IMG/VR virus record: IMGVR_UViG_2558860274_000010
Location: 1 to 15,352 of that record
Strand: one strand, 5' to 3'
DNA from: a virus
Lineage: Duplodnaviria > Heunggongvirae > Uroviricota > Caudoviricetes
Length of the DNA: 15,352 nucleotides
Each line of letters begins with the position of its first letter. Position 1 is the stretch's first letter. Positions 1 to 7,827 of the stretch are shown here, one piece after another. A model generated the notes under the pieces. It made no database searches. It saw only the letters and a list, made by a program, of their open reading frames with translations, and had not been told where the DNA came from. The position numbers were made by a program, and so were the translations under genes.

Positions 1-485
1 TTTGTTTTACCTCATTACAGATTTAAGGGTGAACAAATCCCTGCCATTGCTGGCATATAAGAATGAAACCGGATATTTATTACGGAACTGTTTTAAAGAC
101 CTGCCGGGATTTCGTTATTATCCTGGTGAATAACTTTATCGACCGGGTAACAGTTACCGGGAATTTTCTGTTCGGTTGCTGCAGTCACACACTCCTGCAT
201 TGTCCTGTGAACACTGACTGCAATATCAACTGGCTCTCCGGAAACAAGAAAAACTGTCAGAACAAGTGCAAATGCTGTATTCATTGCCAGCATCCTTTTT
301 GTATCGGACGTAAACGGGCCAGCATTGAAAGAATGCATATTTTATTTAATAACTCCCGTTCGTGTTTTCTCTTGTTAATGGCATCTTCAGTAAATACAGG
401 GTTACTGATAGTGACACCAATTTCAAAACAACCTTCAGACGTATTAACGTTTGGTAATAACGTTTCCATTATCGCGTCCTCAACA

Positions 486-794
486 ATGAATTTTGTGATG
501 CGATGCCTGGTGCCTCCAGGTGACGTTAACCAGTTAACAATTAACGCCGGATACAGAGAATGCATGACGTGTGGTAATCAGGCAGATGATCCGCATCACA
601 TCATTGGTCATGGACTGGGAGGGATGGGAACAAAGGCTGATGATTTGTTTGTTATTCCGCTGTGCCGTAAATGCCATAGCGAACTACACGCCGGGGTAAA
701 AGATTTTGAAGAAAAACACGGCAGCCAGCTGTTGTTGCTGATTCGTTTTTTAATGCACGCGAGAAATTCGGGTGTCCTGAAGTGGAAAGCATGA
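486..794 (+). CDS. nin-region Cys/His-rich zinc-binding protein (DUF1364/YbcO-like); start uncertain
   Basis: The C-terminal ~100 aa of the 63..794 frame carry a CxxC...HH...CxxCH pattern (CMTCGNQADDPHHIIGHG...CRKCHSELHAG) like small proteins found just upstream of rusA in lambdoid prophages. The stop codon abuts the rusA ATG (TGA 792-794, ATG 795). The frame is open back to 63, but the upstream part is Cys/Asn-rich and unprotein-like; ATG 486 or 495 are plausible starts. Confidence 0.45.
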   Translation: MNFVMRCLVPPGDVNQLTINAGYRECMTCGNQADDPHHIIGHGLGGMGTKADDLFVIPLCRKCHSELHAGVKDFEEKHGSQLLLLIRFLMHARNSGVLKWKA

Positions 795-1160
795 ATGACT
801 GAACGCATAGAATTTGTTTTGCCTTACCCGCCAACGGTGAACACTTACTGGCGACGTCGTGGCAGCACATATTTTGTATCAAAAGCCGGTGAGCGTTATC
901 GCCGTGATGTGGCGCTTATTGTTCGCCAGCAGCGGCTGAAATTAAACCTGTCCGGAAGGCTGGAGATAAAGATTATTGCAGAGCCACCGGATAAACGTCG
1001 TCGTGACCTGGACAATATCCTGAAAGCACCACTGGATGCGCTGACGCATGCCGGACTTCTCATAGACGACGAGCAGTTTGATGAAATCAATATTGTGCGC
1101 GGTCAGCGCGTTCCTGGGGGACGGCTGGGCGTGAAGATTTACAAAATTGAGAGTGAGTGA
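795..1160 (+). CDS. rusA: Holliday junction resolvase RusA
   Basis: 121-aa ORF with clear similarity to E. coli RusA as recalled, including the PDKRRRDLDN region, length ~120 aa and a C-terminal GGRL motif. Translationally coupled to the upstream ORF. Confidence 0.85.
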   Translation: MTERIEFVLPYPPTVNTYWRRRGSTYFVSKAGERYRRDVALIVRQQRLKLNLSGRLEIKIIAEPPDKRRRDLDNILKAPLDALTHAGLLIDDEQFDEINIVRGQRVPGGRLGVKIYKIESE

Positions 1161-1168
1161 TCGTAAAT

Positions 1169-1711
1169 ATGATATACCCGGAAATTACAGGCAAAAGCGG
1201 CGAGCATTTACGTCTAAAAACGCTGGAAGCCGTCTGGATCCAGGGGAAATTACGGATGTGGGGGCGTTGGTCGTATATAGGTGGTGGCAAACCAGGAAAT
1301 ATGTTCAATCAGTTGCTGGCATCCAAAAAACTGACAAAAACCGCAATCAATGAAGCCCTGCGTAGAATCAGGGAGTCAGGGATTGATAAACCAGAGCTGG
1401 AAGCATTCTTGCGAGAGATGATCGCTGGCAGACAGAAGAGCTGGTTGTCTCACTGTACTGATGCAGAGGCGTTACGCATTGATGGGGTGATAAGTAAAGC
1501 GCTTGCACGTTATCCTGGATTGATTGATATCCTGCGGCAAAGGTACGAAGGGCGGGGGATGAGTAAACGCAAAATGGCTGAATTGTTGAATGAGGTGCAC
1601 CCGGAATGGTGTTTTAGTACATGCGAAAAGCGAATTGCTAATTGGTTGGCTGTTGCTGAATATGCGCTATACATCCCTATGCGAGAATCGTTTGCTCAAA
1701 AAATGTCTTGA
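1169..1711 (+). CDS. putative late-gene antiterminator (Q-like)
   Basis: 180-aa ORF (ATG 1169; the track's 1157 start is GTG) placed between rusA and a strong intrinsic terminator, followed by late-region genes. This is the canonical lambdoid Q position; identity rests on synteny, not on a recognised motif. Confidence 0.5.
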   Translation: MIYPEITGKSGEHLRLKTLEAVWIQGKLRMWGRWSYIGGGKPGNMFNQLLASKKLTKTAINEALRRIRESGIDKPELEAFLREMIAGRQKSWLSHCTDAEALRIDGVISKALARYPGLIDILRQRYEGRGMSKRKMAELLNEVHPEWCFSTCEKRIANWLAVAEYALYIPMRESFAQKMS

Positions 1712-1736
1712 TTTTTTACGCATAAACTGTTTCAAT
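1708..1736 (+). promoter_or_regulatory. candidate pR'-like late promoter (TTGATT-N17-TTCAAT)
   Basis: Sigma70-like hexamers directly after the Q-like ORF and about 60-90 nt upstream of the tR'-like hairpin. Assigned by position only. Confidence 0.25.
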
Positions 1737-1795
1737 CCAGCTACGCTTCGCAAAGCTATACCGCGAGGCGAATAGCAGACATGGACACCTGAAAG

Positions 1796-1819
1796 AACCC
1801 GCTTTATGCGGGTTTTTTT
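1796..1819 (+). terminator. intrinsic terminator (tR'-like)
   Basis: Perfect 7-bp stem AACCCGC/GCGGGTT with loop TTTAT, followed by a T-run (TTTTTTT). Sits about 85 nt after the Q-like stop. Confidence 0.7.
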
Positions 1820-1942
1820 ATGTCTGAAAAACGGCACAGAACATTAAACGCGCTGGTAGTTGTGAATACTGGTCTTTCAGCTTGCTGGCTTTTTCGACAA
1901 GAGGTATTGGTATGTCACGTTAACCGGAAAAGGGAAAAAAGC

Positions 1943-2140
1943 ATGCTAAAACAGCAGGATATGACCGAAACCGCCAGAGTGGTGTTTAATGAATTAAGCG
2001 TCACCGAACCGGCGACCGTCGGGGAAATTGCGCAGAATACTTACCTTTCACGCGAACGCTGCCAGTTAATACTGACTCAGCTTGTTATGGCGGGTCTGGC
2101 AGATTATCAGTTCGGTTGTTACAGACGCCTTCCGCAGTGA
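1943..2140 (+). CDS. small HTH-like protein (65 aa), function unknown
   Basis: ATG 1943 preceded by AAGGGA at spacing ~8. The segment ATVGEIAQNTYLSRERCQLILTQLVMAGLA resembles a helix-turn-helix. The track's 1820 start overlaps the terminator and is unlikely. Confidence 0.4.
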   Translation: MLKQQDMTETARVVFNELSVTEPATVGEIAQNTYLSRERCQLILTQLVMAGLADYQFGCYRRLPQ

Positions 2141-2290
2141 AGGCTTTTTAATTTGTGGTAATGGGCGGCTGGTGGGTGTTAGCGGCACCTGCCAGCCATC
2201 TGCTCATGCGTTGGGGTCACAAGCAAACCTCAGGCCCATCTGCTTTGCGCAAAAGCGGTATGAGCCTATCAGAGAAGTGCTTATTGATCT

Positions 2291-3340
2291 ATGATTAATA
2301 CTGTAAAAATATCCAGTTGTGAGTTAATCAACGCTGATTGCCTGGAATTTATCCAGACCTTACCGGAAAACTCTGTCGATCTGATAGTCACAGACCCGCC
2401 ATACTTTAAAGTGAAGCCCGAGGGCTGGGATAACCAGTGGGAGGGCGACGATGATTACCTGAAATGGCTGGACCAGTGTCTGGCGCAGTTCTGGCGGGTA
2501 CTGAAGCCTGCCGGAAGTCTTTACCTGTTCTGTGGTCATCGCCTGGCATCTGACACCGAAATCATGATGCGTGAGCGCTTTAATGTGCTGAACCACATTA
2601 TCTGGGCGAAGCCGTCCGGACGCTGGAACGGGTGCAATAAGGAAAGTCTGCGGGCGTATTTTCCGGCAACAGAGCGCATTCTGTTTGCAGAACATTATCA
2701 GGGACCGTATCGCCCGAAAGATGATGGCTATGTGGCACAGGGGCGCGAGCTAAAACAGCACGTCATGGCCCCGCTGATTTCTTACTTTCGTGATGCGCGT
2801 AAATCACTGGGAATAACGTCAAAACAGATAGCGGAAGCCACCGGAAAGAAAAACATGGCTTCGCACTGGTTTGGTACCAGTCAGTGGCAGTTACCGAACG
2901 AGGGTAATTACAACAAATTGCAGGCGTTGTTTGCGCGTGTTGCGGCAGAAAAACATCAGCGCGGGGAACTGGAAAAGCCACACCACCAGCTGGTCAGCAC
3001 ATACAGTGAGCTGAACCGGCAGTATACGGAACTGCTGAGTGAATATAAAAATTTGCGGCGGTATTTCGGTGTGACGGCGCAGGTTCCGTACACCGATGTC
3101 TGGACGCATAAACCGGTGCAGTACTATCCAGGGAAACATCCGTGCGAAAAACCGGCAGAAATGCTGCAGCAGATAATCAACGCGAGCAGTCGTCCGGGAG
3201 ACCTGGTTGCAGATTTTTTTATGGGTTCAGGTTCAACGGTAAAAGCGGCGATGGCACTGGGGCGTTGTGCGATTGGTGTTGAGCTGGAGACAGGACGTTT
3301 TGAACAGACAGTCAGGGAAGTTCAGGATTTAATCGTTTGA
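2291..3340 (+). CDS. DNA methyltransferase (N6-adenine or N4-cytosine, beta-class), apparently orphan
   Basis: 349-aa ORF with catalytic DPPY motif near the N-terminus (IVTDPPYF) and an FxGxG AdoMet-binding motif near the C-terminus (FFMGSGST). No restriction endonuclease partner is evident nearby. Confidence 0.8.
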   Translation: MINTVKISSCELINADCLEFIQTLPENSVDLIVTDPPYFKVKPEGWDNQWEGDDDYLKWLDQCLAQFWRVLKPAGSLYLFCGHRLASDTEIMMRERFNVLNHIIWAKPSGRWNGCNKESLRAYFPATERILFAEHYQGPYRPKDDGYVAQGRELKQHVMAPLISYFRDARKSLGITSKQIAEATGKKNMASHWFGTSQWQLPNEGNYNKLQALFARVAAEKHQRGELEKPHHQLVSTYSELNRQYTELLSEYKNLRRYFGVTAQVPYTDVWTHKPVQYYPGKHPCEKPAEMLQQIINASSRPGDLVADFFMGSGSTVKAAMALGRCAIGVELETGRFEQTVREVQDLIV

Positions 3341-3389: not shown

Positions 3390-3465
3390 GGCCCTTTAGC
3401 TCAGTGGTGAGAGCGAGCGACTCATAATCGCCAGGTCGCTGGTTCAAATCCAGCAAGGGCCACCA
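3390..3465 (+). tRNA. ileZ: tRNA with anticodon CAT (Ile2/lysidine type or Met; ileZ-like)
   Basis: Manual cloverleaf: acceptor GGCCCTT/AAGGGCC, D-arm GCTC/GAGC, anticodon loop CTCATAA, T-arm GCTGG-TTCAAAT-CCAGC, encoded CCA at 3463-3465. Confidence 0.85.
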
Positions 3466-3472
3466 TCACATA

Positions 3473-3549
3473 CCGCCATTAGCTCATCGGCAGAGAGCGT
3501 CAGCTTTCGAAACTGGCTGTGTGGGGCCCGGGTCCCCGATGGCAATCCA
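3473..3549 (+). tRNA. argN: atypical tRNA-Arg-like, anticodon TCG (argN-like)
   Basis: Manual fold: D-arm GCTC/GAGC, anticodon loop TTTCGAA with U33 and A37, encoded CCA at 3547-3549. Irregularities: two C-A mismatches at the acceptor end, one mismatch closing the anticodon stem, and a non-canonical T-loop CCCGGGT. Confidence 0.5.
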
Positions 3550-3562
3550 TTATCTGCATTAT

Positions 3563-3639
3563 GCGTTGTTAGCTCAGCCGGACAGAGCAATTGCCTTCTA
3601 AGCAATCGGTCACTGGTTCGAATCCAGTACAACGCGCCA
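3563..3639 (+). tRNA. argO: tRNA-Arg, anticodon TCT (argO-like)
   Basis: Manual cloverleaf: perfect acceptor GCGTTGT/ACAACGC, anticodon stem ATTGC/GCAAT with loop CTTCTAA, T-arm with TTCGAAT loop, encoded CCA at 3637-3639. Confidence 0.85.
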
Positions 3640-3776
3640 TATTCATTCTTCCAGATTTCTTCCGGCAGAGCCTTATACTGGAATATACCTGGCTCAGGAT
3701 ATTGTTGAAAATATTATATGTTTGTCAAAAATAAAAGTTCTGTTAAGTATTGATTGAGTGTTTGTTATACGGTCTA

Positions 3777-4103
3777 ATGGTTTTTTCAGTATTAAATATT
3801 TATCATTCATATGGTGTGGGTAGAGTGAATATTGATGAGGCGTCGGGGTGTTTCATCCTTAGGCAGCGTATTGATATAGTCAATGCAGCACGAGCAAAGG
3901 CCTTCAGCCGTTTGACAGTTTTGTTCTGTACTCCTGATCGTCTTTTGGGAAGAGACGTTATTATTCTGAATAGTGATGCTATACAGAGGGTTTGCGATGA
4001 GTTCATGGTTGCTAATTCAGAATTATTTGCTCTTGTTCAGGAGTACAACAGAATAGCCAGGACCTGTGGTATGGATGAACTTCGGATTACTCATCTGGGG
4101 TAG
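3777..4103 (+). CDS. hypothetical protein (108 aa from first ATG), unknown function
   Basis: Open frame 3750..4103 (TTG at 3750, first ATG at 3777) in AT-rich DNA right after the tRNA cluster. A TTGTCA-N17-TAAGTAT promoter-like element lies at 3721-3749. No convincing Shine-Dalgarno and no recognisable family. Confidence 0.3.
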   Translation: MVFSVLNIYHSYGVGRVNIDEASGCFILRQRIDIVNAARAKAFSRLTVLFCTPDRLLGRDVIILNSDAIQRVCDEFMVANSELFALVQEYNRIARTCGMDELRITHLG

Positions 4104-4494
4104 ATACATATCTGGATTATCACCTGTTACGGTAAAAAGTGATTGCTTACTGTTTTTGTGAATGGCATTGCAGCAGCCGGATAATGTCAGTGCTGGCTGA
4201 CGGTGTGCTGGTGGCGGGTGTGGTGGTTGTTGCTTTCCCGTTGCTGAAAAAGAAAACGCCAGACTGTTAGCCGGGTATCAGTTAGCGGGAGAAATTTTTA
4301 AATACTTCACAATTCAGGCGGTTGACTGTTGTCTGGTTTGCGGGGAGTTTGTTAAAAGAAACTGGCATGGTGAATCCCCCTGTGCGGTGGGGCAATCAGC
4401 GAGTAGGTATATGGGATAATCGCGGATTCAGGTGCTGGTACTGAATTCACCGGGAGGCACCCGGCACCATGCAATGGCACATAGCGCCACTCTC

Positions 4495-4524
4495 CAGCCC
4501 CTCTCCGGAGGGGCTGTTTATATT
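4495..4524 (+). terminator. intrinsic terminator-like hairpin
   Basis: 9-bp stem CAGCCCCTC/GAGGGGCTG with loop TCCG, followed by a T-rich tract (TTTATATTGATTTT) on the + strand. Lies immediately 3' of the stop of the minus-strand ORF 4518..4886. Confidence 0.4.
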
Positions 4525-4886
4525 GATTTTGTCAGATGTGAGTAAACTCCTGATGGACTTTGTTGTTTTAGTCCATAAGGACATATTTGCAGAGTGCAAC
4601 GGTTATTAAAGCATTCATTCAATACGTTATCTGTATTTGTAGGGCATTCCTGGCTGTTTTTGATTAAATTCCAGAATGTTTTATTGAATGGTACTACGTT
4701 GTAAATGGTTACAGGTAGCACTTTGTTATTGAGCATGATGCCTGTGTGAGTCAGTGTAAATATACTTTCAGGAGGTAAGAAAGCATCCGATTGATACCAG
4801 ATTATTAATTTTATTTTACTCCATATGACTGAAAAAGATATTCCGCATGATGGCTGGATAACTGTATCAATCACAATCCACTTCAT
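4518..4886 (-). CDS. hypothetical protein (122 aa), AT-rich cargo gene
   Basis: Minus-strand ORF with a good ribosome-binding site (AAGGAAAGTAA then ATG). Low GC compared with the flanks; no recognisable family or signal peptide. Confidence 0.4.
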
Positions 4887-5186
4887 TTACTTTCCTTGTT
4901 TATGCCTTGCTGGTGATGTTCTGAAAAGTATAAATGATATTTTTGAATTAAACCATAGAGCAGAATTATTTTTCTGATGTTGTTTATTGTTTATTTAAAT
5001 ACAGGGTGGTTTATATCTCGTCTTGTAGTTTATCCATGCATATCTGCTTGATAATCAGGTTTTTATTTAAGGTATGGTTTTGTGTTTTTTCTGTATAGAC
5101 TGGCCCCCTGAATCTCCAGACAACCAATATCACTTAAATAAGTGATAGTCTTAATACTAGTTTTTAGACTAGTCATTGGAGAACAG

Positions 5187-5552
5187 ATGATTGATGTCTT
5201 AGGGCCGGAGAAACGCAGACGGCGTACCACACAGGAAAAGATCGCAATTATTCAGCAGAGCTTTGAACCGGGGATGACGGTCTCCCTCGTTGCCCGGCAA
5301 CATGGTGTAGCAGCCAGCCAGTTATTTCTCTGGCGTAAGCAATACCAGGAAGGAAGTCTTACTGCTGTCGCCGCCGGAGAACAGGTTGTTCCTGCCTCTG
5401 AACTTGCTGCCGCCATGAAGCAGATTAAAGAACTCCAGCGCCTGCTCGGCAAGAAAACGATGGAAAATGAACTCCTCAAAGAAGCCGTTGAATATGGACG
5501 GGCAAAAAAGTGGATAGCGCACGCGCCCTTATTGCCCGGGGATGGGGAGTAA
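5187..5552 (+). CDS. insC: IS2 transposase OrfA (InsC)
   Basis: 121 aa beginning [21 protein letters not shown]..., preceded by GGAGAACAG. Matches IS2 InsC as recalled. Confidence 0.85.
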
Positions 5553-5722
5553 GCTTAGTCAGCCGTTGTCTCCGGGTGTCGCGTGCGCAGTTGCACGTCA
5601 TTCTCAGACGAACCGATGACTGGATGGATGGCCGCCGCAGTCGTCACACTGATGATACGGATGTGCTTCTCCGTATACACCATGTTATCGGAGAGCTGCC
5701 CACGTATGGTTATCGTCGGGTA
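5510..5722 (+). pseudogene. insD: IS2 orfB (insD) 5' fragment, truncated after codon 71
   Basis: [30 protein letters not shown]...PTYGYRRV matches the InsD N-terminus. The expected continuation is replaced from 5723 by unrelated sequence in the same frame. Confidence 0.7.
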
Positions 5723-6919
5723 CAGAAGAACCCGAAAAATGTGTTGCTGGCGGTGTGCTGGATGCAGGGAGAGTTTGACATGAGCGCCGCCACCCACGCA
5801 CAGCAACCTGCGCTGTTTACAGCCATGCTGACACAGTTTCGTGCTGACCTCTCCGTGTTTAACGCGCAGTGCCATGGTGGCAGTGCTGCAGATGTGCCGT
5901 GGATTTGTGGTGACACGACGTATTACTGGAAAAATACATACGCTACCCAGTACGACACCGTGTACGGCGGGTATAAAAACAGGGAGAGTGAGGGCGTTTA
6001 TTTTGTGCCCTTCATGACAGACGGTAACGGCGTCAATACCGCCACTAACGCGCCGGCAGAAGATCCGGATATTCCGGCATCAGGATATTACGGTGCGGCA
6101 TCGAGAACGAATGGAAACCAGGTATCATCAAACCGCCCGACACATTTCAGTTCATGGGCGCGCAGGAGCATTATTCCGGATCGTCTGGCAACCGCTATTC
6201 TGAACGCAGCCGGGCGCACCTCAGCCTTCATCAGTGGTAAGGCACCGGAAATCAAACCCTCGCCCGGCGGCAACACGCCATCGGGTCCGTCTGCAGATAC
6301 GTCCGTTCGCACAATCTCCCTGCTGCCGGCAGCCGGAGAGGCTGCTGCGCAGGGCTGGAGCATTAAGGATGGCGGAATTCAGTTGTCAGATGGTGTATTT
6401 AAGATCACCAAGCAGAGCAATAAAACCTGGTCCCTGACGCATCCGGTGGATGACGCAATTACCCTGCTGACACAGGGCGGCAGACTGACCTGTAAGTTCC
6501 GCCTGTCAGGCGCACTGACCAACAATCAGTTCGGGCTGGGGATTTATCTGTATACGGATGCTCCCGTTCCTGATGGTGTGGCGATGACGGGTACCGGTAA
6601 TCCGTTCCTGATGTCGTACTTCACTCAGACCACTGACGGCAGAGTGAATCTGATGCATCACAGGAAAGCCGGAAACACGAAGCTGGGGGAGTTCGGCGAT
6701 TACGGTAACGACTGGCAGACGCTGGAGCTGGTGTTCACCGCCGGCAGTGCCACGGTTACTCCGAAACTGAATGGAGTGGCTGGCCCGGCATTCCAGGTTA
6801 TAAAAGACGGTCTGACACTGGGACTGAATGCGCTGACGCTGACGGATGTTACAAAAAATGCAGCGTATGGCGTTGAGATAGAAAGTCTGGTGCTGGAGAT
6901 AAATGCACCGGCAGCATAA
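5723..6919 (+). pseudogene. 3' portion of a prophage nanS-p/YjhS-family sialate O-acetylesterase gene, 5'-truncated and fused in frame to the IS2 orfB stub
   Basis: Translation from 5723 ([19 protein letters not shown]...[12 protein letters not shown]...YGGYKN...[20 protein letters not shown]...[14 protein letters not shown]) parallels the C-terminal half of E. coli NanS/YjhS as recalled, followed by a ~250-aa extension. The N-terminal part of the gene is absent. The position between the tRNAs and the holin matches where Stx phages carry nanS-p. Confidence 0.6.
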
Positions 6920-7285
6920 TAAAAAAGAGCCAGCGACTGACCTGAAAGAAGACGCTGGCTAAAAGGCCTTATATGTTTGTAGAGACTTATTTTTCACAGA
7001 CAGCAATGATGCCTGTCAATATATTATCAATATGCGGATTGTTTCAGTTACAGATGCTTTATTAAGGAAAAAAACAGCCAGCACTGACTTTCGGTGGAGA
7101 GGTGCTGGCTCAGAAGGATAGTTGGATTTCACATGATACTTATGCCTGGCGGTATATTTTCTGACAGACAGTGACGGGTGTTGTCAAGATATTGTGTCAT
7201 TTATAACCTGAATCAGGGGAGGCCGGAATGTTATCTGGCATTTTTAGCAGAGCCTGAATGCCATAATCACGGCTCCCGGAGTTGG

Positions 7286-7321
7286 CCGTCAGTGGGTGAC
7301 ACTGGCGGTTTTTTTGTTTTT
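7286..7321 (+). terminator. intrinsic terminator upstream of the holin
   Basis: 9-bp stem CCGTCAGTG/CACTGGCGG (one G-U pair) with loop GGTGA, followed by TTTTTTTGTTTTT. Lies 45 nt upstream of the holin start. Confidence 0.5.
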
Positions 7322-7365
7322 CTTTACTTTCATTTTCTGTCGGCGGTGACGGAGACATACATCAG

Positions 7366-7572
7366 ATGGAAAAAATCACAACGGGTGTGTCATACACCAC
7401 GTCAGCGGTGGGGACGGGATACTGGTTACTGCAGCTGCTGGACAAAGTCTCTCCGTCCCAGTGGGTGGCAATCGGTGTGCTGGGGAGTCTGCTGTTTGGC
7501 CTGCTGACGTATCTGACTAACCTTTATTTCAAGATTAAAGAAGATAAGCGTAAGGTGGCGCGGGGAGAGTAG
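7366..7572 (+). CDS. class II holin, phage-21 S21-type pinholin
   Basis: 68-aa ORF closely resembling the phage 21 pinholin as recalled (two TMDs, GYW and [14 protein letters not shown] motifs, C-terminal [13 protein letters not shown]). GGAGA ribosome-binding site upstream. Confidence 0.85.
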
Positions 7573-7827
7573 TCGATGAATAAACAATACGAACTGGTTG
7601 TAAAATGAATATTTCTAACTGAAAAAACGTTCCATGAGGTAAGAAAAGGTCACAGGCAATCAATAACAGGACGTGATGAAAGACCCTTGCATTTGTGCGC
7701 TTTCTCTTTAGATAGCAGCAGATACTGAAAATCTGAGTTGTCGGGGAGTCAGGGATACAGCTGTGCAAGAGTTGGTCATTGTGATTCCATTGAAATCCTG
7801 TATGCCATGAAGGGCAGGATTTTATGG

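Follow-up and report, generated by a model that had tools for sequence, protein, structure and literature searches.

The window, by which we mean the whole 15,352-nt stretch of viral DNA analyzed here, was recognized as part of a non-Stx lambdoid prophage with Qin-like cargo from the annotation of the matching locus in E. coli 97-3250 (L001; NZ_CP027599.1), read over window positions 1-3340 and 3640-15352. Its tRNA genes are preceded, in this order, by a flxA-like gene, ydfV, relBE, hokD and genes for a DUF968 protein, RusA, a DUF1133 protein and a DNA methyltransferase, and are followed by genes for a DUF3927 protein, iraM, a SASA esterase, a holin and a lysozyme. Unlike Stx2 phages, the prophage is devoid of stx, and the position that stx occupies in Stx phages, after the tRNA cluster, is taken here by DUF3927, STnc100 and iraM. 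The STnc100 sRNA (RF02076; Rfam 130.5 bits) lies at 4336-4525 on the plus strand, some 700 nt past the tRNA genes, with a terminator-like hairpin at 4495-4516. Members of this sRNA family also follow the cluster in related loci, where more than one copy is sometimes present, as in L018. Over a 361-nt tRNA-cluster query the window was 100% identical to E. coli 97-3250, in whose genome five places match the cluster. The cluster itself is composed of the following elements:

3390-3465, plus strand: ileZ-type tRNA, anticodon CAT, intact (ARAGORN; Rfam tRNA 72.5 bits; PGAP tRNA-Ile)
3466-3472, plus strand: spacer 1, ATCACAT, then A, common to Stx2-phage clusters by alignment
3473-3549, plus strand: degenerate argN of 77 nt, very probably a tRNA-Arg(UCG) pseudogene (Rfam 22.2 bits; 64/77 to argN)
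3550-3562, plus strand: spacer 2, TTATCTGCATTAT, identical to the Stx2a-phage spacer
3563-3639, plus strand: argO-type tRNA-Arg, anticodon TCT, intact (ARAGORN; Rfam 70.1 bits; PGAP tRNA-Arg)

The names ileZ, argN and argO reportedly come from the 933W genome paper by Plunkett et al. in 1999. The argO anticodon loop (3597-3603) reads CTTCTAA in the window and in most prophages and CTTCTGA, with G37, in the Stx2a-phage copies L002 and L003. A minus-strand open reading frame at 3444-3632 (62 aa, TTG start), which overlaps the slot and parts of both tRNAs and falls in a hypervariable segment, was treated as spurious.

The slot between the two flanking tRNAs holds a 77-nt sequence, CCGCCATTAGCTCATCGGCAGAGAGCGTCAGCTTTCGAAACTGGCTGTGTGGGGCCCGGGTCCCCGATGGCAATCCA (3473-3549), that can be drawn as a cloverleaf-like structure with the following parts:

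3473-3479, plus strand: acceptor stem, 5' strand CCGCCAT, with C1 and C2 opposite A72 and A71
3482-3498, plus strand: D arm, GCTC-ATCGGCAGA-GAGC, with GGC in the D-loop versus GGG or AGG in intact alleles
3500-3516, plus strand: anticodon arm, TCAGC-TTTCGAA-ACTGG, with a T27·G43 wobble and a C31·A39 mismatch
3505-3511, plus strand: anticodon loop, TTTCGAA, with the anticodon TCG at 3507-3509
3522-3538, plus strand: T arm, TGGGG-CCCGGGT-CCCCG, with the T-loop at 3527-3533
3539-3549, plus strand: acceptor stem, 3' strand ATGGCAA, followed by the discriminator T and CCA (from the sequence and the argN alignment)

The original prediction, made by inspection of the letters, had named this element a structurally atypical tRNA-Arg on account of its anticodon loop TTTCGAA, anticodon TCG and encoded CCA, all of which are present. 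It had also described two C-A mismatches atop the acceptor stem and a third closing the anticodon stem, and the Rfam tRNA model agrees, since in a full-length alignment (model positions 1-71) non-standard pairs were flagged at exactly 1:72, 2:71 and 31:39. The acceptor stem is accordingly not fully paired over its 7 bp (C1·A72 and C2·A71), with A71 and A72, at 3544-3545, standing where intact alleles have GG, ahead of the discriminator T at 3546 and CCA at 3547-3549. The anticodon stem runs T·G, C-G, A-T, G-C, C·A, from the 27:43 T·G wobble to the closing 31:39 C·A mismatch, and the 7-nt loop that it holds has T33 and A37. The off-consensus T-loop CCCGGGT is likewise found where it had been placed: of the consensus T54-T55-C56-R57-A58 it fits C56 and R57 only, with C54, C55 and G58 replacing T54, T55 and A58. 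In the D-loop, ATCGGCAGA, the GG is present but shifted by one position relative to intact alleles, and its partner position 55 is mutated. The suspicion that this manual fold might be off can be dropped because the Rfam alignment and ARAGORN at 95% of its threshold draw the same cloverleaf. An initiator-type tRNA, considered because of C1·A72, was rejected, as the anticodon is TCG and not CAU and the anticodon stem is without three consecutive G-C pairs at its bottom.

At default settings ARAGORN made no call at 3473-3549 and called only the two neighboring tRNAs, whereas at 95% of the default threshold (option -ps) it returned the same interval as a tRNA-Arg(tcg) of 77 bases. A scan of the window at Rfam gathering thresholds found only the two neighboring tRNAs and the STnc100 sRNA, with nothing at 3473-3549, and in a permissive scan with the Rfam tRNA model (RF00005) the element reached 22.2 bits, below the curated gathering score of 29 bits. 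The Rfam tRNA model and the PGAP annotations served as proxies for tRNAscan-SE. On NZ_CP027599.1, PGAP annotates a tRNA-Ile and a single tRNA-Arg and leaves the interval between the two empty; it also places nothing between ileZ and argO in E2348/69 and four other members of the lineage that carries the window-type allele, and no feature lies under the match in any carrier among the matches listed (87 carrier genomes). With no default ARAGORN call, an Rfam score below gathering and no PGAP feature in the listed carriers, a working tRNA-Arg at this position is refuted by the criterion set in the original prediction, namely that tRNA tools return no call or a pseudogene call. At the slot, exactly one number is missing from the run of RefSeq locus tags, which jump from RS15535 to RS15545 in 97-3250 and from RS06605 to RS06615 in E2348/69 (L131; NC_011601.1), newer genomes being without this gap, and this skip suggests that a feature formerly annotated there was later dropped.

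The Rfam tRNA scores of slot alleles from other loci put this value in perspective and form a gradient of decay. Intact alleles scored 58.0 bits (L004) and 54.8 bits (L002, of the Stx2a type), and a partly damaged one with two mismatched pairs and A58G scored 43.4 bits (L018). Window-type lineage members spanned 19.8-26.4 bits or gave no hit, with 26.4 bits for L012 (T-loop CTCGGGT), 23.7 and 23.5 bits for L133 and L132, 22.2 bits for the window allele and for E2348/69, 19.8 bits for L134 and L135, and no Rfam tRNA hit for L092; the neighboring tRNAs scored 68-72.5 bits throughout. L012 equals the window allele except at T-loop position 55 and is still called by ARAGORN at default, and the window allele is therefore one substitution below the ARAGORN threshold. 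The pair makes a near-threshold test case for tRNA callers, as T55C alone is enough to reverse the verdict of ARAGORN.

Stx2a phages and O157:H7 genomes carry in the same slot, between ileZ and argO, an annotated 77-nt tRNA-Arg, argN, which ARAGORN calls as tRNA-Arg(tcg) in the Stx2a phage. Alignment with this middle gene of the Stx-phage ileZ-argN-argO cluster upheld the assignment to a tRNA-Arg(TCG)-type element: the window element and Stx2a_F403 argN are identical at 64 of 77 positions, with 13 differences and no gaps inside the genes, while ileZ and both spacers are identical between the two clusters and argO differs by one base. By position and sequence, 3473-3549 is thus the ortholog of argN. 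The argN of 933W-type Stx2 phages, located upstream of stx2 and named as such in AP012529.1, resembles the window element in its slot, its spacers, its length of 77 nt, the TCG anticodon, the discriminator and CCA. In contrast with Stx2a argN (54.8 bits), the window allele has 13 substitutions, broken pairs at 1:72, 2:71 and 31:39 and replaced T54, T55 and A58, and it obtains neither a default ARAGORN call nor a PGAP call.

The folding energy of 3473-3549 was no better than that of shuffled sequence (z = 0.10), which, together with the sub-threshold Rfam score, could be taken to mean that the cloverleaf arose by chance or from a sequencing artefact and is not tRNA-derived. This reading, which we regard as extremely improbable, is refuted by the syntenic position, by the 83-86% identity that the element shares with annotated argN and by the recurrence of the identical sequence in 39 independent complete genomes; the element is tRNA-derived and not a chance cloverleaf because it is homologous to annotated argN in the same ileZ-argO position. 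The energy of its cloverleaf, in which 18 of 21 pairs remain, is -16.9 kcal/mol versus -28.3 to -31.3 kcal/mol in intact alleles (-28.3 kcal/mol in the 933W-type argN allele), a deficit of 11-14 kcal/mol.

Relative to the nearest intact slot alleles, with which it shares 66 of 77 positions, the window allele has 11 substitutions (9 transitions and 2 transversions), all of which weaken or remove a conserved feature and none of which is compensatory. G72A and G71A remove the top two acceptor pairs and G39A the last anticodon-stem pair, T54, T55 and A58 are lost and two G-C pairs are turned into G·U. The element is argN-derived with disabling, uncompensated changes at conserved positions, and we consider it highly probable that it is a decaying pseudogene allele of argN, carried by an E. 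coli lambdoid prophage of the Qin-like, non-Stx type. We see in it a gene relic of an ordinary sort and a new allele, not a new kind of RNA. Among the three explanations that had been offered for the atypical structure, namely a decaying pseudogene, a specialised phage tRNA or a faulty fold, only the first has stood.

Like tRNA pseudogenes generally, the window element is homologous to a working tRNA gene, has lost stem pairs and invariant residues, has sub-threshold covariance scores and, within its lineage, is substituted at a rate like that of the spacers. Unlike them, it lies between two intact and presumably expressed tRNAs in one transcription unit. No promoter- or terminator-like site of its own was found between the three elements of the cluster, so the relic probably continues to be transcribed together with its neighbors, which would place it in a late-operon transcript shared with ileZ and argO. 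Nearly all tRNAs require the T54-A58 contact, that of position 55 with G18 and the pairs 1:72 and 2:71 for their folding, 5' processing and use by EF-Tu, so the product of the window allele should not decode. Its transcript would be unlikely to fold into the L-shape or to be processed by RNase P at the mispaired acceptor end, and equally unlikely to be charged or used by EF-Tu; it would make no contribution to decoding, and the allele is expected to yield no functional product. In E. coli, CGA and CGG are read by the ICG and CCG arginine tRNAs, and readers of AUA and of AGA/AGG are scarce. The host would presumably find argN dispensable and would gain scarce AUA and AGA/AGG readers from ileZ and argO, and the existing capacity to read CGA and CGG would plausibly explain why only the middle gene has decayed.

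Some features count against a pseudogene. The cloverleaf aligns over its full length, the 7-nt anticodon loop with T33, the anticodon TCG and the encoded CCA are kept, ARAGORN calls the element at 95% of its threshold and an allele one substitution away is called at default. We therefore weighed a functional, non-canonical phage tRNA-Arg(UCG), the anticodon stem and loop context of which would let it escape a host tRNA-targeting nuclease and still decode, in the light of known nuclease-resistant phage tRNAs, such as tRNA-Thr(UGU) versus P2-OLD and tRNA-Lys versus PARIS AriB (PMC12445682, PMC11464382, PMC10264068). Resistance of phage tRNAs to P2-OLD is reported to involve a shorter anticodon stem and an altered CNG motif (PMC12445682), and anticodon-nuclease evasion is reported to proceed through loop mutations (PMC10264068). 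The window allele is similarly phage-borne and has an anticodon stem shortened to 4 bp as well as C32T. However, those tRNAs decode and their acceptor stem and T-loop are canonical, whereas the window allele has lost both canonical elements and is not conserved within its lineage, and the loss of T54, T55, A58 and the pairs 1:72 and 2:71 is unrelated to escape from anticodon nucleases. The window-type allele was also absent from 50,697 deposited phage genomes. A specialised phage tRNA, which we hold to be very unlikely, finds no support, since the allele's own lineage does not conserve the deviant features, as described below.

The extent of that lineage was surveyed with a 97-nt query. Of 5,426 complete E. 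coli genomes, 87 carry the window-type allele, 39 of them in exact form, among them O26:H11, O111 and porcine ETEC strains; H10407 and E2348/69 have a single change elsewhere in the query, outside the slot allele. Seven relatives, chosen across identity bands, were compared over the 250-nt cluster, counting sites and not events on a tree, and 7 variable sites were found in the 77-nt slot versus none in the 153 nt of ileZ and argO (Fisher p = 4e-4). The spacers had 1 variable site in 20 positions, with no significant difference between them and the slot, and ileZ was identical in every relative compared. The changes in the slot were a G to A in the D-loop, a C to T in the D-stem, an A to T and a G to A in the anticodon stem, T/C at position 27, C/T at T-loop position 55 and CCA to CTA, the last of these occurring in L092 along with a lost D-loop G. 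In this small sample the slot bears the apparent signature of a sequence evolving like neutral flanks beside two constrained genes, with substitutions at a spacer-like rate that extend to the loss of CCA and leave members at 19.8-26.4 bits, which speaks against a specialised tRNA. The exact allele persists unchanged in 39 genomes of diverse pathotypes, which counts against a pseudogene, although the recent spread of one prophage module could explain this persistence equally well.

The concentration of differences in the slot is pronounced in the comparison with Stx2a, with 13 of 77 slot positions differing versus 1 of 153 in the two neighboring tRNAs (p = 3e-6). Local hypermutation was rejected as the cause, since the flanks reveal mosaicism. 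Four loci (L048, L033, L030 and L044) have an upstream methylase flank 98.5-99.5% identical to that of the window and an identical argO, yet they carry a canonical argN that is 80.6% identical to the window across the slot, and in two others (L037 and L112) the 600 nt downstream are 99% identical to the window but the slot is occupied by an 80-nt form. From these mosaic flanks it follows that old slot alleles have been swapped by recombination and that no targeted mutagenesis is needed, the exchange being likely anchored in the conserved ileZ and argO genes. A process of the diversity-generating-retroelement type was not indicated either, as the changes are not adenine-specific.

To place the window allele among its homologs, a viral-contig collection was scanned with the 3' end of ileZ and, with E. 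coli and phage records added, about 125 clusters were gathered, in which the middle slot has 54 distinct alleles. The ileZ-argO slot is hypervariable in lambdoid prophages and may hold Arg or Lys tRNAs, forms without an anticodon arm, fusions or deletions. Among the 66 Arg-type clusters, the slot has 33 alleles, the commonest of which accounts for 9 of 66 clusters, versus 35 of 66 for the commonest argO allele and 57 of 66 for that of ileZ; spacer 2 is more diverse than the slot. In each of the 25 other 77-nt alleles, the three pairs broken in the window (1:72, 2:71 and 31:39) are C-G without exception. Compensatory switches, mostly between Arg and Lys forms, occur across the slot family at four stem pairs (in slot numbering, 7:67 TA/CG, 28:44 CG/TA, 31:41 GC/AT and 4:70 CG/TA), and the slot gene is therefore a real tRNA, the cloverleaf of which is under structural selection that is violated in the window allele. 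The T-loops form a series, TTCGAGT, TTCGGGT, CTCGGGT and CCCGGGT, with an intermediate in L055 that has CTCGGGT on otherwise intact stems. No intermediates of the stem mutations were present among the surveyed alleles, and the gap of 11 substitutions to the nearest other allele counts against a pseudogene.

In several loci of other lambdoid prophages (L009 at 416-491, and also L011, L015, L052, L016 and L124) the slot is occupied by a tRNA-Lys(UUU) that has about 85% identity to argN. It shares the acceptor, D and T arms of argN, and its acceptor and anticodon stems show compensatory switches. It looks like an Arg to Lys identity switch, that is, alloacceptor remoulding, within one phage tRNA lineage. 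PARIS and PrrC are known to target tRNA-Lys(UUU).

The commonest single slot allele is an 80-nt form found in 18 of about 125 loci (including L005 at 434-513, L006, L007 and L010), in which the acceptor, D and T arms are kept and a 7-bp hairpin, CGAUAAC-AGG-GUUGUUG, replaces the anticodon arm; it is called by neither ARAGORN nor Rfam, and PGAP labels it 'tRNA-OTHER' when its T arm is canonical. L008 (433-513; ETEC1746, Stx2e prophage) belongs to the same group. A 66-nt deletion class is also without an anticodon arm (L022, L075 and L083), argN/argO chimeras are joined in the anticodon loop (GCCTTCTAAGC; L029, L056 and L102) and in L028 the slot is absent, with argO directly after ileZ. In these other prophages the slot appears to have been lost or to have decayed independently in several ways.

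The 80-81-nt and 66-nt forms, having acceptor, D and T arms without an anticodon arm, raise the question of a tRNA-like RNA that does not decode and acts instead as an RNase P/RNase E processing spacer for ileZ and argO or as a decoy for a defence protein. The window allele itself mostly retains its acceptor, D and T stems, with the bulk of its pairs in place, and the presence of the exact allele in 39 genomes would also fit such a role. On the other hand, the changes within its lineage hit stems, loops and CCA indiscriminately and leave no conserved novel motif, and the slot is not required because it is absent (L028) or fused to argO (L029, L056 and L102) in loci where ileZ is present. We accordingly see little chance that a non-decoding RNA of this kind accounts for the window allele.

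A broader proposal would make the window allele and the other odd slot occupants states of one fast-evolving, tRNA-shaped counter-defence module of lambdoid prophages, a notion to which we attach very little credence. That such a module would be a nuclease-resistant tRNA or a decoy for PARIS, PrrC, OLD or colicin D, shuffled by recombination between phage backgrounds and anchored in the flanking tRNAs, is speculative to the same high degree. Searches of the literature on argN, ileZ and argO, on Stx-phage tRNA genes and on prophage tRNA pseudogenes returned nothing specific to the window allele, and an eLife paper on phage tRNAs makes no mention of Stx or lambdoid phages or of tRNA-Arg.

With the slot read as a dead copy of argN, the unannotated 97-nt gap between two tRNA genes is explained, and the annotation pipelines were right to leave the window slot uncalled. 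The wider pattern could matter more: recombination has shuffled the middle slot of ileZ-X-argO clusters, the identity of the slot has alternated between Arg(UCG) and Lys(UUU), and decay has set in repeatedly. This pattern bears on current work that asks what phages gain from their tRNAs, be it codon supply or escape from tRNA-cleaving defences.

A milder form of damage is common in the same slot. A58G, giving the T-loop TTCGGGT, is found in about 30% of the Arg-type alleles (for example in L018, L032 and L043), in some of them on an otherwise perfect cloverleaf, and one common A58G group also has A6·A67 and A52·C62 mismatches and scores 43 bits. The argN gene may thus be impaired in many prophages in which it is still annotated as tRNA-Arg.
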